Below are positions 30,001-36,000 of a DNA stretch of 64,000 nt, one piece after another (the stretch's first letter is position 1; each line of letters starts with the position of its first letter). A program made the position numbers. Where the stretch lies: NCBI GenBank assembly GCA_947085095.1, contig CAMTVD010000004.1, forward strand, positions 70,329 through 134,328, given 5' to 3'. This DNA is from an uncultured Thermus sp. (GTDB taxonomy: Bacteria; Deinococcota; Deinococci; Deinococcales; Thermaceae).

Positions 30001-33000
30001 GGAGATCGCCAGGGCCATCGTCCAGGCGGCGGAGGAGGTCATCGCCGGCAAGCTGGACGACCACTTCCCCCTGGTGGTCTTCCAGACAGGCTCCGGGACC
30101 CAGACCAACATGAACGTGAACGAGGTCCTCGCCAACCGGGCCTCGGAGATCCTGGGCAAGCCCCTGGGGAGCAAGCACGTCCACCCCAACGACCACGTGA
30201 ACCGGGGCCAGAGCTCCAACGACACCTTCCCCACCGCCATGTACGTGGCCACCGCCTTAGCCCTTCACCAGCACCTCTACCCGGCGGTGGAGAGCCTCAT
30301 CGCCACCCTCGAGGAGAAGGCCCGGGCCTTTGACGGCATCGTCAAGGTGGGCCGCACCCACCTCATGGACGCCGTCCCCATCACCCTGGGCCAGGAGGTG
30401 GGGAGCTGGGCCGCCCAGCTCAAGAACACCCTGGCCATGGTCAAGGAAGCGGAAAAGGGCCTCTACAACTTGGCCATTGGCGGCACCGCCGTGGGCACGG
30501 GCCTCAACGCCCACCCCCGCTTCGGGGAGCTGGTGGCCCGGTATCTGGCGGAGGAGACCGGCCTCCCCTTCCGGGTGGCGGAGAACCGCTTCGCCGCCCT
30601 GGCCGCCCACGACGAGCTGGTCCAGGTGATGGGGGCCATCCGCACCCTGGCCGGGGCCCTGATGAAGATCGGCAACGACATCCGCTGGCTGGCCTCCGGG
30701 CCCTATGCGGGCCTCGGGGAGATCTTCATCCCCGCCAACGAGCCCGGGAGCTCCATCATGCCGGGCAAGGTGAACCCCACCCAGGTGGAGGCCCTGACCA
30801 TGGTGGTGGTGCGGGTCTATGGCAACGACCAGACCGTGGCCTTCGCCGGGAGCCAGGGCAACTTCCAGCTCAACGTCTACAAGCCGGTCATGGTGGACGC
30901 CGCTTTGGAGTCCATCAAGCTTCTGGGCGACGCCGTGACCTCCTTCAACGAGCACCTGGCCCAGGGGATTGAGCCCAACCTGGAGCGCATAGAGGAGCAC
31001 CTCAACAAGAACCCCATGCTGGCCACCGCCCTCAACCAGGCCATCGGCTACGACAAGGCGGCGGAGATCGTCAAGAAGGCCATCAAGGAGAAGAAGTCCC
31101 TGAAGCAGGCGGCCCTGGAGCTGGGCTACCTCAGCGAGGAGGCGTTTGACCGGATCGTGGTGCCCATGCGGCTGGCCAAGCCCCACGAGGGGGCCTAAAC
31201 GTGAGAGCCGCCACGGCCTAAGGGATAAGGCTCCTTATAGTGGGAGGCGGAGGTGCAGTATGCCGTACCCGTTCAAGCTACCCGAGCTAGGCTACCCCTA
31301 CGAGGCCCTCGAGCCCCACATTGACGCCAGGACCATGGAGATCCACCACCAGAAGCACCACGGGGCCTACGTCACCAACCTGAACGCCGCCCTGGAGAAA
31401 CACCCCTACCTGCAGGGGGTGGAGGTGGAAACCCTCCTCCGGCACCTCGCCGCCCTCCCCGCCGACATCCAGACCGCCGTGCGCAACAACGGGGGCGGGC
31501 ACCTGAACCACAGCCTCTTCTGGAAGCTCCTCACCCCCGGTGGGGCCCAGGAGCCCGTGGGGGAGCTGAAGAAGGCCATTGACGAGCAGTTTGGCGGCTT
31601 CGCCGCCCTCAAGGAGAAGCTCACCCAGGCGGCCATGGGCCGCTTCGGCTCCGGCTGGGCCTGGCTGGTCAAGGACCCCTTCGGCAAGCTCCACGTGCTC
31701 TCCACCGCCAACCAGGACAACCCGGTGATGGAGGGCTTCGCCCCCATCGTGGGCATTGACGTCTGGGAGCACGCCTACTACCTCAAGTACCAGAACCGCC
31801 GGGCGGACTACCTGCAGGCCATCTGGAACGTCCTCAACTGGGACGTGGCCGAGGAGATCTACAAGGGCGCCTGAAGGTTGAGAACGCGGCTGACGGCCCC
31901 TTCCAGGGCCGTCAGCGCTTCTTTTACCCGCCAGGCTCCCCTGTCCCGCACCCCGGCGGGGTTGGAGACGGCCCTGAGCTCCGCCCCCCTTAGCCCCAAG
32001 GCCAGGCAGGCCCGGGCGAAGGCCGCCCCCTCCATGCTCTCCACCTGGGCCCCCCATCTCTGGGCCAGGGCCCATGCCTCCTCGGGGCTTTCCGAGACCA
32101 GGTCCTGGGTGAGGCCGGTGACCACTCTAAGGCCCAAGGCCTCGGCCAAGGAAGCGGTGAGGCCAGGGTCCAGGGGAAAGCGGTTGTAGTAGCGCTTCTC
32201 CCCCTTCCGGAGGGCGGGAAAGCCCAGGGCCTCCAGGCCTTCCCTAAGGCCCAGGTCCGCCTCCACCTCCTCCCCGATGAGGACCGCCTGGCCCAAGGCG
32301 AGCCCCGAGCCCGGGTAGGCCCCGGCGATGCCGAAGAGGAGGGCCCTCTCCACCGGGTGCCCCAGGGCGTAGGCGGTGAGGGCCATGGCGGCGTTCACTT
32401 TGCCCACCCCCGTTTCCAGGTAGACGAAGTCCTCACCCTTAAGCCCTTTCCAGACGAGAAAGGTGAAGGGATCCCCCCGGAGGAAGGGGGCCTCGAGGCG
32501 GGTGGGGGAAAGGAGGAGCCACACTACTCCACCACCCTGAAGCCCAAAGCCTCGGCCCGCTCCACGAAGAACTGGATGTTCTCCGACTTCACCTCGCCCC
32601 CCAGGCTCTTCCGCTCAAAGGCCCCTTCCGCCGCCAGGATCATGGTCTCCGCCAGGCAGGCGGGCACCTGGTCCGGGGCCCCGAAGTGCAGGTCCAAGGT
32701 GGCCCGGGCCTGCCCGGGGAGGCGCACCACCCCGCCGGGGATCACCCGCACCCCCGGTACCTCCCGCACGCTCTCGTGCACGTCCGGGGGGACGCCCTCG
32801 TCGTAGATCCAGGCCCCGGGCTTCACGTGCTCCGGGTAGATGACGGGGTTGGGATCGCTGGTGGCGGTGAAGACCAGGTCCGCCTCCTTGATGGCGGCCA
32901 CCTCCGTGGTCACCACCATCTCCGGGGCTTCCCCCTTTTTCTCCAGGTTCCTCCTCAAGGTCTCCGCCGCCCGGCGAAGCCTTTCCAGGTCCCGGCCCAC

Positions 33001-36000
33001 CAGGATGAGCTTTCCCACGTAAGGGGCGATCTGCCGGGCGATGCCGAAGGCCACCACCCCGTTCGCCCCCACCACGGCGGCGGTGGTCTCCTTGAGGCTC
33101 CTAGAGCTTTGGGCGAAGTGGGCGAGGATATTGGGAATGGCCGCCCTCACCGTGCCCGCGGTGTAGGCCCCCCCGTTGGTCACCTCAATCCCCGGCACGG
33201 TCTCCTGGACCTTGAGGCCCTTCTCCCCCACCACGCTCCAGAAGGCCCCCAGGCCCACCACCGTGGCCCCGAGCTCCTTGGCGAGCCTCGCCCCCTGGAT
33301 GGCCCGCCTCACCGCCAGGTCGGGCTTCCCCTTGATCTGGTGGGGCAGGAGGGGGGCGGAGATGAGGTGGCAGCGGATCTCCCGCCCGTCCGCGGTCCTC
33401 ACCCCCCGCACCTCCCCCACCTTCATGGGGCGGAAAAGCTCCGCCAGGCGCTCTATCCAGGCCTGCCTGAGAAGGCCGAGGCGGACGAAGGGCCTGAGCC
33501 AGCGGAAGCGGGGGCTCTGCCAAAAGTCCTCCACGGTGAGGGGGTGGATGAGGAAGGCGCAGACCACCTGGTTTTCCGAGGGCAGGGGCAGGGGCTCGCC
33601 CAGCTTGGGCTCGGTGCCCTCGAGGATCCGCCCCAGGTTCTCCTTGTAGCGCCAAAGGGCAAGGAGGAAGAGCAAGAGGCCAAGAAGCTTCGCGCCCAGG
33701 GAAAAACCCCCAAAGAGGAGAACCGAAAGAAGCCCCAGGGGCAGGGCCAAGGAGGCCAAGGAGGCGTAGCCGGTGAGGGCGTAGAGGGTAAGGGCCAGGG
33801 CCACGGGTGCCATCCCTAGGGCCGGGGAGAGAGGGAGACCCGCCAAAACCCCAAGGAGCACCCCCGCCCCCTTGGCCCTAAGGGGCCAGGGGTCCCGGAA
33901 GAAGAGGGGGTAAAGGTGGCCCAGGTAAGCGGCCACCCCCAAGGCCAGAAGTTCCTCTAGGCCCAGGCCCAAGGCCCGCCCCAAGAGGAGGGGCAGGTAG
34001 CCCTTGAGGAAGTCCAGGAGGAAGGAAAGGAGGAGCATCCCCAGGCCCAGGCGCCTCAGGGCGCTCTCCAGGCCCAGGGTGTAGGGGCTTGCTGTACGCG
34101 GGTCCACCCCGCGCCTTTGGGTCAGCCAGTACCCCAGGGGCAGGGCCCCCATTAGGTAGGCCAGGGGAAGGAGAAGCACGGTCATCGCAGGTAGTTTAGC
34201 CCCACCACCACCCCGCCGGTGAGGAAAAGGGTGAGGAAGCCGGCGGCCACCACCCCGAAGGAGATGGCCAGAAGGGCGTAGCGCCGCCTGAGGCCCAGGA
34301 CCACCGCCAGCACGCTCCCGCTCCAGGCCCCGGTGCCGGGAAGGGGCACGGCCACGAAGAGGAAGAGGCCCAAAGCCCCCAGGCGCTGGACCTGTTCCTC
34401 TCCCTTGAGGCGGACCCGGGCCTCGAGGGCCTCCCAGGCCCTGAGGAGGAGGGGTAGCCGGGTGGCGAGGGCGATAACCCAGGGGAGGAGGACCAGGGCC
34501 ACCGGGGCCACCAGGAGGTTGCCCAAGAGGGCCAGGAGGAAGGCTTCCCAGGGGGAAAGGCCTAGGGCCACCCCCAAGGGGATGGCCCCCCTGAGCTCCA
34601 CCACGGGCAGGGCGGCCACCAGAAGGACGTAGAACTCGGGCGTCATCTTCATAGAAAGGGCGCCGGAGCCTAAAGCCCGGCGCCCATCTCTCCCTGCTTA
34701 GGCCCGGGCAGCCTTGGCCTTCTCCACCAGCTCGGCGAAAGCCTGGGGCTCCCTCACCGCCAGGTCGGCCAGGACCTTGCGGTCCAGCTCAATACCCGCC
34801 TTTTTCAGCCCGTTCATGAAGCTGGAGTAGTTGAGGCCGTGCTGGCGGCAGGCGGCGTTGATGCGCACGATCCAGAGCTTGCGGAACTCCCGCTTTTTTG
34901 CTTTGCGGTCGCGGTAGGCGTAGTTCCCGGCGGCGAAGAGGGTTTCCCGGGCCTTGCGCACGCTCTTGGAGCGGAGGCCCCAGTACCCCTTGGCCAGCTT
35001 GAGGATCTTCTTGTGCTTGCGGCGACGGACGACACCGGTCTTGGCGCGCGGCATCCCCTACCCCCTCACTCGTAAGGGAGGAGGAGCTTGATGCGCTCCG
35101 CCTCCGGCTTGGCCAGGGCGAACTTCCGCCCCTTCTGGCGGATGGTCTTCCCCGACTTGTGCCAGTTCAGGTGCCTTTTGCCCGGTTTCATGGCCACCAC
35201 CTTGCCCGAAGCGGTCACCTTTACCCGCTTCTTGGCGCCCTTGTGGGTCTTCATCTTTCCCATATTGGCCCTCCGCTTGGGAAGCGCCCCCTTGGGGGTC
35301 TTTGGAGCTCCCCAAAGCCTTCACACTATACCAGAGGCCTGGAAAAAGGTCTAGGCGGACACCTTGGCCGGGGCCAGGAGCATGTTCATGTCCCGGCCCA
35401 GAAGCTCCGGCTTCATCTCCACCACGGCCATCCCCTTGAGGTCCTCGGCCACCCGGTCCAGAAGGCGCTGGCCCAGCTCGGGGTGGCTCATCTCCCTCCC
35501 CCGGAACATGATGGTGACCTTGACCTTGTGCCCTTCCTCCAGGAAGCGCTTGATATGGTTCAGCTTGGTCTGATAGTCGTGGTCGTCTATCTTGACCCGG
35601 AACTTGATGGACTTGACCTCGGTGCGCTTGGCCTTCTTCCGGGCCTCCTTCTCCGCCACCTGCTGCTCGTAGCGCCACTTGGAGTAGTTCATGATGCGGG
35701 CCACGGGGGGGTCCGCGGTGGCGCCCACCAGAACCAGGTCCAGGTCCTGCTCCCGGGCCAGGCGCAAGGCCTCCCGGGTGTCCATGATGCCCAGCTGCTG
35801 CCCGTCGGCGCCGATGACCCTCACCTGTTTGACGCGGATGCGTTCGTTGGTCAGGTACTCCTTTATCTACATCACCTCCCAGCCCGCAAAAGCTCTTTCG
35901 GTTTCGCGGGCTAAGGGGAGTCTAGCAGGAAACGCCCCTCGGCTACAATGGGGGCATGGTTCAGGTGGAAAAAGGCCGCGTGGCCACGCTGTTTTTGAAC

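Follow-up and report, generated by a model that had tools for sequence, protein, structure and literature searches.

Two families of described enzymes bear on the gene analysed here. In PlsY of Aquifex aeolicus (aaPlsY), His92 is a ligand of the phosphate of acyl-phosphate and Thr41 binds its carbonyl, Ser35, Ser142 and His177 belong to the glycerol-3-phosphate (G3P) pocket, and mutation at Ser35, Asn37, Thr41 or His177 costs most of the activity (PMC5700162). In the available portions of PMC9594044 and PMC8341465, Cys294 in AAR, an acyl-ACP reductase, is the acyl-thioester cysteine, and the known donors of the family comprise thioesters, with ACP or CoA, and a tRNA ester. Together with class-III transaminases such reductases make long-chain amines, TamH taking C12-ACP through the C12 aldehyde to the C12 amine (PMC9594044) and PigE an acyl thioester through an aldehyde to an amine (PMC8341465; both as far as the accessible text goes). 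We describe a Thermus gene that joins relatives of PlsY and AAR in one protein, a combination on which our search found no paper.

Domain architecture and gene setting

The gene lies in a 64,000-nucleotide stretch (the window) of contig CAMTVD010000004.1, from an uncultured Thermus sp. (Table 1). A genome-wide survey's note had placed on it an ORF of 553 aa and disputed its database name; the boundaries hold, on the minus strand and with an ATG start, and the NCBI entry does read 'glycerol-3-phosphate acyltransferase'. An overlap of 4 nt (ATGA) joins the start of the fusion to the stop of the PF06695 gene upstream, and this neighbour, which adjoins the fusion in Thermus and one further family (f4) and is present in only 69 of 364 genomes of the phylum, is translationally coupled to it. 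Downstream, the fusion stop and the GTG start of MqnB have 1 nt in common.

All of the Pfam, NCBIfam and PDB scores given in that note were reproduced. Residues 8-187 cover the Pfam G3P_acyltransf profile end to end (4e-29) and residues 361-482 match Shikimate_DH (4.4e-9); NCBIfam returns PigE (2e-32), PlsY TIGR00023 (5.9e-22) and AAR TIGR04058 (4.1e-14), and the PDB sequence matches are 5xj5 (5.4e-22), 4ppm (7e-14) and 6jzu (1.5e-11). With 78.4 bits for the PlsY equivalog (cut-off 137.2) and 52.6 bits for TIGR04058 (cut-off 449.7), the fusion stays below both thresholds. The AF2 model (pLDDT 94.0, pTM 0.91) predicts that the two domains are rigidly arranged through a 10-residue linker. Foldseek matched the PlsY-like domain to 5xj5-5xj8 (E about 1e-10, TM-score on target 0.81-0.84) and the reductase domain to 6jzu (E 6.8e-19, TM-score on target 0.76), the second-best family for the latter being carmabin TAD 9e56 (E 3e-15).

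The same genome encodes a canonical PlsY with GSGNIGATN, GGKGVAT and THREN intact, not on contig C39, where the earlier note had put it, but within the window; a second PlsY-length match was also present in all five other genomes checked. As previously stated, PlsX is present and no ADO was found in this genome, which also encodes a genuine HemA elsewhere. Among 14 controls the AAR family had been said to ring in three; we count four, with M. jannaschii also matching, below cut-off.

Table 1. Features of the fusion gene, its neighbours and the canonical PlsY (positions in the window)
Feature	Position	Strand	Remarks
Whole ORF, PlsY-like + AAR-like fusion (P0001)	32524..34185	-	553 aa, stop codon included
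PlsY-like membrane domain, residues 1-196	33598..34185	-	Pfam PF02660 4e-29; PlsY fold, helices as in 7-TM PlsY structures
Codon of Glu40, at PlsY Thr41 position	34066..34068	-	Clade-specific replacement; position from alignment
Codon of His90, PlsY His92 equivalent	33916..33918	-	His in 57/58 rows
Codon of Arg103, at PlsY Gly102 position	33877..33879	-	Phosphate-hole loop; then Ala104-Lys105-Gly106
Linker, residues 197-206 (EPLPLPSENQ)	33568..33597	-	Short; pLDDT stays 89-94 across it
AAR / PigE-N / TamH-TR-type reductase domain, residues 207-553	32527..33567	-	PigE 2e-32, AAR 4.1e-14, 6jzu 1.5e-11
Nucleotide-binding motif G373-A-N-G376-V-V-A379	33049..33069	-	GxxGxxG/A; aligned to AAR GATGDIG
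Codon of Cys510	32656..32658	-	Predicted acyl-thioester nucleophile; aligned with AAR Cys294 (cysteine of QMFACFAE)
Upstream gene, 156 aa, PF06695 small membrane protein	34182..34652	-	Pfam 4.5e-36
Downstream gene, futalosine hydrolase (MqnB)	31859..32524	-	TIGR03664 1.6e-55, above cut-off
Canonical PlsY of same genome (P0271)	17051..17656	-	TIGR00023 185.1 bits, cut-off 137.2

The two active sites and their distribution

The loss of GSGNxGATN, with DxxKG and GH kept, that the survey had described is borne out: the motif reads ASPYTLGLES here, and FLDFLKG and GH are present. Across the 33 aligned fusions of at least 40% identity, Glu stands at the Thr41 position in 26 (at least 26 of the 27 core Deinococcota sequences), Arg at the Gly102 position in all, and positions 104-105 hold a basic residue and then Gly in 32. 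Arg at the Gly102 position also occurs in Armatimonadota; of the 25 fusions outside the set of 33, 23 have Gly there. Ser35, Ser142 and His177 are retained in 2, 2 and 8 of the 33, against 24, 21 and 25 of the 25 outside fusions; in this Thermus protein Ser35 has become Pro, Asn37 Thr, Thr41 Glu and His177 Tyr. With Glu in place of Thr41, the donor cannot be bound just as in PlsY. Conservation is high at 22 positions of the domain, each kept in at least 26 of the 27 core sequences, among them G38, E40, D58, K61, G62, G89, H90, R103, G106, R179, K181, R186 and E192, which fall in the three PlsY motifs. Judged from the alignment, the best-conserved residues are those of the active site, which has been remodelled, has not decayed and is still under selection. 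Over nine diverse lineages, mean pairwise identity is 0.40 for the PlsY-like domain and 0.57 for the reductase.

The reductase cysteine that the survey had called invariant, Cys510, is present in all 58 aligned fusions, as are G373 and G376. An AAR fold with a nucleophilic cysteine and a GxxGxxG motif makes aldehyde formation the natural reading of this domain.

The full-length fusion was found in 348 of 364 Deinococcota genomes (E <= 3.4e-82; one of them, G324, is unpublished), and one more, G331, holds a fragment at a contig end. The survey had counted 150 of 151 genomes; the gene has genuinely disappeared from two or more lineages, two of these losses being proven by synteny. Nor is the fusion phylum-specific: Patescibacteria hold fusions with a canonical PlsY domain, and Armatimonadota MAGs hold both canonical forms and degenerate ones, the latter sister to the Deinococcota clade in our tree. 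The fusion is old and recurs in three phyla. The canonical-type relatives (Patescibacteria and Armatimonadota type I), which have gpsA adjacent at 2 of 6 loci, are probably active PlsY enzymes. Donors of the thioester type seem to be in short supply in hosts of the canonical fusion: five Patescibacteria genomes yielded ACP in one, PlsX in two, and FakB or AMP-binding ligases in none. Among 50 proteins scanned, of 150 listed, three join the reductase domain to a PlsC-type acyltransferase and seven to an SRPBCC lipid-binding domain, so the PlsY-derived domain could be just one lipid or membrane-targeting module among several.

Proposed activity and competing explanations

Our best explanation, which taken whole we consider evenly balanced between right and wrong, is an aldehyde-forming membrane fatty-acyl reductase with a remodelled PlsY-derived domain. 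The C-terminal cytoplasmic domain would belong to the AAR/PigE-N/TamH class of reductases and depend on NAD(P)H; in it a long acyl chain would be loaded on Cys510 as a thioester and then reduced to a fatty aldehyde. The N-terminal domain would have given up G3P acylation; its conserved, remodelled site would bind PlsX-made acyl-phosphate in the membrane groove and deliver the chain, or its acyl group, to the reductase, which would dock at the cytoplasmic face of this domain, for an overall reaction of acyl-phosphate + NAD(P)H -> fatty aldehyde + Pi. A fatty aldehyde is probably the product; that the donor is acyl-phosphate rather than acyl-ACP is a tentative proposal, somewhat doubtful on balance, and against it counts that we know of no AAR-family enzyme using acyl-phosphate. 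The scarcity of thioester donors beside the canonical fusion and the short, rigidly modelled linker speak for the explanation; the Glu at the Thr41 position, the lower conservation of the PlsY-like domain than of the reductase, and the PlsC-type and SRPBCC fusions speak against it. If the explanation is true, the database name is wrong, and the protein makes a fatty aldehyde at the membrane rather than ordinary phospholipid.

The survey's note had further proposed this aldehyde as the precursor of the alkylamine in the phylum's phosphoglycolipids, whose third-chain enzymes are, as it said, described as unidentified in the accessible part of PMC9636437. Of that reading, the doubt about the acyltransferase name (78.4 bits, pocket residues gone) and the aldehyde stand, and amine formation has its precedent in TamH and PigE, whereas the phylum-specific link is weakened by the Patescibacteria and Armatimonadota fusions. 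Transamination to the alkylamine is a plausible hypothesis that we nevertheless regard as rather unlikely to be correct. The clean loss of the fusion in two Deinococcota lineages counts against it. No aminotransferase was found fused to the reductase, conserved beside the gene or co-occurring with it, in agreement with the earlier note; the best candidate, a PigE-C-like gene (G000 C31:4240-5484), is matched by clear orthologues in no group but Thermaceae and family f4 and shows no co-loss with the fusion. The sole lipid-type gene context found is a two-HKD gene of the PLD superfamily directly downstream of the fusion in 28 Deinococcus genomes. It also tells against the alkylamine fate that for Armatimonadota, the phylum with the sister degenerate fusions, a search judged by its hit list found no report of alkylamine lipids.

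The same reductase might instead supply fatty alcohols or wax esters, alkyl/alkenyl ether lipids, or long-chain 1,2-diol glycolipids, which are reported in some Thermus strains; we consider this unlikely, though a contender. It gains from the spread of the family beyond Deinococcota, from the missing aminotransferase partner and from the PlsC-type fusions, which recall the acyltransferase and acyl reductase pairs of ether-lipid pathways. It loses from the lack of ADO in the genome, from the confinement of the Thr41-to-Glu state to the Deinococcota clade, and from the alkylamine phosphoglycolipid being the only lipid feature that we know to be common to Deinococcus and Thermus (accessible part of PMC9636437; see also PMC3398001).

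Improbable, in our view, is a reverse or non-reductive reaction in which the cysteine domain makes acyl-phosphate (from a thioester or ester + Pi, or GAPDH-like from aldehyde + NAD(P)+ + Pi) for the PlsY or PlsY-like domain, in Deinococcota with an acceptor other than G3P. The complete chromosome of a Berkelbacteria genome (G364) carries a canonical fusion beside gpsA, and no PlsX, FakB, ACP or AMP-ligase was found on it, leaving the fused domain as the only visible acyl-phosphate source; the conserved, remodelled Deinococcota site also fits. Deinococcota, however, have PlsX and so need no other source, PlsX is also present in two of the five Patescibacteria genomes, MAG incompleteness weakens such gene absences (G364 excepted), and the characterised family members are all reductive in the accessible parts of PMC8341465 and PMC9594044.

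The database reading, a bifunctional protein with an active acyl-phosphate:G3P acyltransferase N-terminus, is very improbable despite the match over the whole Pfam profile, the retained equivalents of Arg45, Lys104 and Asn180 (plus Ser142 in this protein) and the probably active, in 2 of 6 loci gpsA-linked, relatives. A score under the PlsY equivalog cut-off, replaced G3P-pocket residues and a canonical PlsY in the same genome make a G3P acyltransferase unlikely on sequence grounds, and all four positions that are costly in aaPlsY (Ser35, Asn37, Thr41 and His177; PMC5700162) are substituted. Least credible of all is acyl transfer to a nitrogen nucleophile with no aldehyde released, as in the amidation from a cysteine thioester proposed, with function itself unproven, for the carmabin synthase TAD (available part of bioRxiv 10.1101/2024.10.28.620694): TAD is the second-best Foldseek family, but the domain is nearer AAR and PigE (23% vs 18% identity), and an alkylamine lipid calls for C1 in reduced form rather than in an acyl amide.

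Comparison with known systems

The fatty-acyl reductase explanation sets the fusion beside several known systems. The membrane fold of PlsY (A. aeolicus, PDB 5XJ5-5XJ9; PF02660, TIGR00023) matches over the entire N-terminal domain, and the fusion keeps His92, the phosphate-hole turn of basic residue plus Gly, Arg45, Asn180, Arg183, Glu189 and FLDxxKG. It differs in Ser35 (Pro/Ala), Asn37 (Thr in Thermus), Thr41 (Glu), Gly102 (Arg) and His177 (Tyr/Phe), and in a 350-aa C-terminal reductase, a score under the equivalog cut-off and coexistence with canonical PlsY. The uncharacterised canonical fusions of Patescibacteria and Armatimonadota have the same domain order and length at 27-50% identity and form one family with it on the tree, but keep the full PlsY motif set, the site being remodelled in the Deinococcota clade and marked there by Glu at the Thr41 position.

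With AAR (Synechococcus elongatus, PDB 6JZU; TIGR04058) the reductase has in common its fold, catalytic cysteine, GxxGxxG motif and about equal domain length, at about 23% identity; unlike AAR it is membrane-tethered through the PlsY-like domain and lacks an ADO partner in its genome. PigE (prodigiosin) and TamH (tambjamine) join an AAR-like thioester reductase to a class-III transaminase, and among NCBIfam profiles the reductase domain matches the N-terminal part of PigE best (2e-32), whereas the partner here is a membrane acyltransferase relative, with no transaminase fused or conserved nearby. Phosphorylating aldehyde dehydrogenases and acyl-phosphate reductases (aspartate-semialdehyde dehydrogenase, ArgC, ProA, GAPDH) link acyl-phosphate, a cysteine thioester and NAD(P)H to aldehyde and Pi. 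The proposed reaction would formally resemble that of the aspartate-semialdehyde or N-acetylglutamyl-phosphate reductases, a likeness in how the enzymes may work, with no claim of homology.

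Domain architecture and genomic setting of the fusion

The genome-wide survey's note had reported a protein in which a PlsY-like membrane domain is joined to a reductase domain of the AAR/PigE-N/TamH type. This observation stood overall, with small corrections only, and the Pfam, NCBIfam and PDB scores quoted for it were reproduced with the same values. Pfam places G3P_acyltransf (PF02660) on residues 8–187 (profile positions 1–164 of 164, 4e-29) and Shikimate_DH on residues 361–482 (4.4e-9). Among PDB sequences the fusion matches PlsY (5xj5, 5.4e-22), PigE (4ppm, 7e-14) and AAR (6jzu, 1.5e-11), and in NCBIfam it matches PigE (2e-32, residues 258–550 against the N-terminal third of the model), PlsY (5.9e-22) and AAR (4.1e-14). 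All three NCBIfam scores are far under the equivalog cut-offs (PigE, 112.4 vs 850; AAR TIGR04058, 52.6 vs 449.7; PlsY TIGR00023, 78.4 bits vs 137.2), and the reductase domain forms a subfamily distinct from AAR and PigE. An AF2 model built on a 58-row alignment had a mean pLDDT of 94.0 and a pTM of 0.91, with the linker nowhere of low confidence. A Foldseek search with this model retrieved AAR first (6jzu, E 6.8e-19, TM-score on target 0.76), followed by the AAR-like carmabin TAD (9e56, 3e-15), PlsY (5xj5–5xj8) and then GluTR. The reductase domain has the AAR-type two-subdomain fold with a Rossmann nucleotide site, and the PlsY fold spans the whole N-terminal domain (~1e-10, TM-score on target 0.81–0.84). 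Cys510 aligns with the AAR nucleophile Cys294 (QVPACLAE vs QMFACFAE) and is invariant in 58/58 fusions, a property shared by the GxxGxxG glycines G373 and G376. A HemA/GluTR identity was rejected, as the fusion scores 29 bits, under the HemA cut-off, and the genuine HemA of the genome (339.6 bits) lies elsewhere.

The PF06695 gene, the fusion and mqnB (futalosine hydrolase) are located downstream of infC-rpmI-rplT. Given the ATGA overlap listed in the table and a GTG start of mqnB that has one base in common with the fusion stop, the three genes are probably co-translated. The canonical PlsY, which the survey's note had assigned to another contig, is encoded in the same window, 15 kb from the fusion, and a second, PlsY-length match was found in all five other genomes checked. 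As the note had stated, no ADO, the partner of AAR in the cyanobacterial alkane pathway, was found by a PF11266 search of this genome (93% complete). Its statement that the AAR family is found in only three of 14 control genomes needs one addition: besides S. elongatus (above cut-off), T. thermophilus and D. radiodurans, the AAR model matches M. jannaschii, the last three below cut-off. NCBI records do carry the name 'glycerol-3-phosphate acyltransferase' for the fusion, in all NCBI-named Thermaceae records among the matches listed bar three ('dehydrogenase', 'putative dehydrogenase' and 'hypothetical protein'). For the Deinococcota clade this name is probably wrong.

Coordinates of the fusion and of other features discussed (C, contigs of this Thermus genome; L, loci of other genomes unless stated)
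Feature	Location	Strand	Remarks
Fusion ORF	window 32524..34185	(-)	ATG start, 553 aa
PF06695 'small multidrug export' membrane protein	window 34182-34652	(-)	upstream, stop overlaps fusion start by ATGA
Canonical PlsY	window 17051-17656	(-)	TIGR00023 185.1 bits, all motifs intact
Two-domain PLDc_2 protein	window 5756-6895	(+)	26 kb from fusion
PlsX	C20:19660-20640		
HemA	C6:49107-50141		
Class-III aminotransferase candidate	C31:4240-5484 = L038:4243-5484 (this genome)	(-)	stand-alone; closest to putrescine aminotransferase and PigE C-terminal domain
Group of four class-III aminotransferases	C13:25162-37589		
PLD-superfamily gene, Deinococcus	L013:6455-7993; L014:6225-7787	(-) both	downstream of fusion
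Two ferredoxin-NADP reductase-like flavoproteins, Deinococcus	L014:9754-10962; 10850-12325	(-) both	just upstream of fusion
Canonical fusion directly followed by gpsA, Berkelbacteria MAGs	L029:7962-10705; L032:44-2485		

Remodelling of the PlsY-like site

According to the available excerpt of PMC5700162, the G3P pocket of Aquifex aeolicus PlsY (aaPlsY) comprises Ser35, Arg45, Lys104 and Asn180, which clamp the phosphate, together with Ser142 and His177 at the 2-OH, and the acyl-phosphate site comprises His92, Thr41 and the backbone of 104–107, with the oxyanion stabilised by Asn37. When the residues of the fusion were placed on this structure, the full G3P pocket was found not to be retained (Pro, Arg, Lys, Asn; Ser, Tyr). 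Of the acyl-phosphate elements, the His92 position is kept in 57/58 fusions and the Lys/Arg-Gly turn of loop 104–107 is kept, with Glu in place of Thr41.

Fusion residues placed on aaPlsY by PDB sequence alignment, with residue roles taken from the available excerpt of PMC5700162
aaPlsY	Role	Fusion
Ser35	G3P phosphate clamp	Pro34
Asn37	oxyanion	Thr36
Thr41	acyl-phosphate carbonyl	Glu40
Arg45	G3P phosphate clamp	Arg44
His92	acyl-phosphate phosphate	His90
Gly102	phosphate-hole loop	Arg103
Lys104	G3P phosphate clamp	Lys105
Ser142	G3P 2-OH	Ser145
His177	G3P 2-OH	Tyr180
Asn180	G3P phosphate clamp	Asn183
Arg183	near phosphate clamp (Pi release)	Arg186

An alignment of 58 full-length fusions was divided by identity with this protein, at a threshold of 40%. 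Its 25 more distant rows (under 40%) have the canonical residues (Ser35 in 24, Thr41 in 21, Gly102 in 23, Lys104 in 25, Ser142 in 21 and His177 in 25). Among the 33 closer rows (40% or more), which include three that later grouped with Armatimonadota (P0126, P0127 and P0129), Ser35 is retained in 2, Ser142 in 2 and His177 in 8, and Glu occupies the Thr41 position in 26/33 and Arg the Gly102 position in 33/33. His92, Asp58 and Lys61 are kept in all 33 of these rows, and Arg45 and Asn180 in 25/33 each. Mean identity is 0.40 for the PlsY-like domain vs 0.57 for the reductase. Within the PlsY-like domain, 22 positions are conserved in at least 26 of the 27 core Deinococcota rows, among them G38, E40, D58, K61, G62, G89, H90, R103, G106, R179, K181, R186 and E192. 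These listed residues sit in the three PlsY motifs, not in the transmembrane scaffold, a pattern that points to a site remodelled and under selection rather than one decayed to a mere anchor.

We inferred a quick maximum-likelihood tree from 72 fusions (LG+G4, SH-aLRT), with seven other canonical fusions as the root. It recovered a Patescibacteria-type clade (17 rows, support 99) and a 48-row clade (100) with canonical Armatimonadota forms at its base. All degenerate forms, in which G3P-pocket residues are replaced, fall into a single 37-row clade (99) nested within the latter, which splits into an Armatimonadota type II and the Deinococcota clade (24 rows, 97). The eight genome-derived Deinococcota rows all lie within one 20-row subclade (99). 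Judging from this topology, the canonical PlsY state looks ancestral in the fusions, and the G3P site looks to have been lost a single time, on the stem shared by the Armatimonadota II and Deinococcota forms. The Armatimonadota group, so named in NCBI records, is 45–50% identical to the Thermus protein; of 22 of its rows checked, 11 depart from the canonical state only by Gly102-to-Arg, and the other 11 have a degenerate pattern of their own (Ser35 to Pro or Ala; Thr41 to Gly, Arg, His, Ala or Val; Arg45 to Ala for the most part; Asn180 frequently to His). The Deinococcota clade stands out by its Glu at the Thr41 position.

Distribution, relatives and neighbours

The near-universal presence in Deinococcota claimed by the survey's note was upheld, with true losses as exceptions. 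Some match to the fusion was found in 361/364 genomes (a tally that includes the unpublished genome G324, on which alone no conclusion rests), and a full-length fusion, taken as E <= 3.4e-82, in 348/364. When the 16 remaining genomes, seven of the fusion-less ones being at least 90% complete, were searched with the reductase domain alone, one (G331) had a fragment of the fusion at a contig end, four had distant paralogues only, within ORFs of 926–1472 aa, and 11 had no match at all. In G306 the neighbouring prmA is missing along with the fusion, so that this gap probably reflects the assembly. In G342 (one contig) and G266, the order DnaB <> [fusion]-PrmA-RsmE is intact and the fusion alone is precisely absent; these are true losses, and some lineages can thus do without the gene.

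Among 1.84 billion representative proteins scanned, 6771 matched at E <= 1e-3, and 117 still did so at E <= 1e-30. Pfam layouts, determined for 50 of 150 proteins listed, place the reductase domain in stand-alone proteins of 340–380 aa; C-terminal to a canonical PlsY domain (13 proteins), a PlsC-type acyltransferase (3: P0195, P0212 and P0231), SRPBCC lipid-binding domains accompanied or not by PilZ (7), PilZ alone (1) or an N-terminal region of ~300 aa without domain assignment; and after class-III aminotransferases in the TamH order (2). The metagenome proteins P0196, P0201, P0210 and P0264 combine PilZ, SRPBCC and reductase domains, and the fusions with PilZ hint at lipid reductases controlled by c-di-GMP. 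When longer forms and triple fusions were sought, the search returned only one unrelated aminotransferase-ligase-reductase of 1403 aa and no class-III transaminase fused to the PlsY-like/reductase form, such a blank being weak evidence. The fusions at 27–35% identity, whose taxonomy the survey's note had left undetermined, belong to Patescibacteria (Berkelbacteria, Saccharibacteria and others; 6 loci, in two of which gpsA directly follows the canonical fusion). Among five Patescibacteria genomes searched, PlsX was found in 2, ACP in 1, and FakB (DegV) and AMP-binding ligases in none; the complete 0.93-Mb Berkelbacteria chromosome (G364) yielded no PlsX, FakB, ACP or AMP-binding ligase. These canonical fusions thus raise the question of how reduced genomes obtain acyl-phosphate.

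No neighbour of the fusion is conserved across families in 10 Deinococcota loci. The layout is rplT / PF06695 / fusion / mqnB in Thermus and family f4, DnaB <> fusion-PrmA-RsmE in family f5, and fusion-PLD in Deinococcus. PF06695, which adjoins the fusion in Thermus and f4, was rejected as a universal partner because it is lineage-restricted (69/364 phylum genomes). In 28 Deinococcus genomes with both coordinates listed, the fusion is immediately followed, on the same strand, by a PLD-superfamily gene; 8 further genomes have an orthologue-level match to this gene at another place. The PLD gene was found in 83/125 Deinococcaceae, with several paralogues per genome, and has no homologue in this Thermus genome. 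Its product is divergent, with two HKD motifs, a hydrophobic N-terminus and a weak ClsB match (33–37 bits), and is possibly a phosphatidyl-transfer enzyme or a secreted phospholipase. The D. radiodurans control has no match to CDP-alcohol phosphatidyltransferase (PF01066), which the other 13 controls match, and PLD-type phosphatidyl transfer is therefore conceivable there. Counts of that family showed no pattern between 5 genomes without and 9 with the fusion. The PLDc_2 protein in the Thermus window matches NucT-type nucleases best in NCBIfam, with weak cardiolipin-synthase matches. At one Deinococcus locus (L014) the flavoprotein pair is followed by a Crp-family regulator and gyrA, and a Crp-family gene also lies near the fusion in an f4 locus (L018).

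Reaction, acyl donor and fate of the aldehyde

In AAR, PigE-N and TamH-TR, an acyl group is loaded on a cysteine and reduced to the aldehyde; with TamA, TamH converts a C12 acid through the C12 aldehyde to the C12 amine, and in PigE thioester reduction precedes transamination (available parts of PMC9594044 and PMC8341465). By analogy, the C-terminal domain is most likely an aldehyde-forming acyl reductase, and the fusion would form fatty aldehyde at the membrane.

As for the donor, we infer that acyl-phosphate could link both halves, with the overall reaction acyl-phosphate + NAD(P)H -> aldehyde + Pi. This proposal is made because acyl-phosphate and G3P are, to our knowledge, the only ligands of the PlsY fold, because the acyl-phosphate elements are those kept, because the linker is only ten residues in a confidently rigid model, and because canonical fusions occur where thioester carriers were mostly not found. 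We know of no AAR relative that accepts acyl-phosphate, however, and with Thr41 changed to Glu the donor cannot be placed as in PlsY. The PlsC and SRPBCC fusions indicate that the reductase may simply be tethered to lipid-handling domains. The reverse reading, in which the cysteine domain makes acyl-phosphate for the PlsY or PlsY-like domain, is attractive for Patescibacteria and unnecessary in Deinococcota, since these possess PlsX.

The survey's note had proposed that the aldehyde is the precursor of the alkylamine, the third chain of Deinococcota phosphoglycolipids. Its premise, that the enzymes building this chain are unidentified, is borne out in the available part of PMC9636437, and our literature search found no paper on alkylamine biosynthesis genes. 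The repeated pairing with class-III transaminases (GluTR-GSAM and PigE, PMC8341465; TamH, PMC9594044; both as excerpted), the transaminase-reductase fusions P0253, P0262 and P0391, and the derived active site that marks the Deinococcota clade speak for this destination. The PLD-superfamily gene next to the Deinococcus fusions and the missing CDP-alcohol phosphatidyltransferase match in D. radiodurans are further points in its favour. Against it stand the sister degenerate fusions in Armatimonadota, on whose lipids the literature available in part offered nothing useful, and the lack of a co-distributed partner aminotransferase: none lies within ~4.5 kb of the fusion in 10 Deinococcota loci. 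The best candidate in this genome, the stand-alone gene on C31, is 45% identical to a TamH-type TA domain, matches the C-terminal part of PigE with 428.6 bits and adjoins a YbgC/FadM-type thioesterase, rbfA and glmM. As a phylum-wide partner it found no support, since its orthologue-level matches are confined to Thermaceae and f4 and fusion-less genomes score like their kin, with no co-loss. The alkylamine destination is also weakened by the limited range of the PLD gene, its lack of a homologue in this Thermus genome and its possible role as a secreted phospholipase, by the lineage restriction of PF06695, and by CDP-alcohol phosphatidyltransferase counts that show no co-loss. The four aminotransferases on C13, accompanied by an aldehyde dehydrogenase, a PucR-like regulator, a PotABCD-like ABC transporter and an acetyltransferase-like ORF, look like a polyamine or omega-amino-acid catabolic island.

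On balance, we hold the alkylamine destination to be a tentative proposal that is rather unlikely to be right, albeit one that makes the fusion a concrete gene candidate for this chain of the major Thermus/Deinococcus phospholipid. The composite reading, a fatty acyl-phosphate reductase that would turn the PlsX product at the membrane into fatty aldehyde for the alkylamine chain, is more doubtful still. 1,3-Bisphosphoglycerate is an acyl-phosphate bearing a 3-phosphate, and the remodelled pocket has retained Arg44, Lys105 and Asn183 and gained Glu40 and Arg103; that this pocket might bind it and N-glyceroylate the alkylamine, with Glu40 deprotonating the amine, is a speculative extension with very little probability in our estimate. 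Both the acyl-phosphate donor and the alkylamine destination are offered as hypotheses, not findings.

AAR-type reductases are of interest for the production of fatty aldehydes, amines and alkanes, and if acyl-phosphate is the donor, the fusion would open a new branch point of bacterial lipid metabolism at the PlsX product, and the AAR family would gain a new class of substrate. In the literature we found no paper on a PlsY-reductase fusion or on COG5322 joined to PlsY, and no description of a fatty acyl-phosphate reductase. Compared with known systems, the fusion is a novel variant assembled from two known families.
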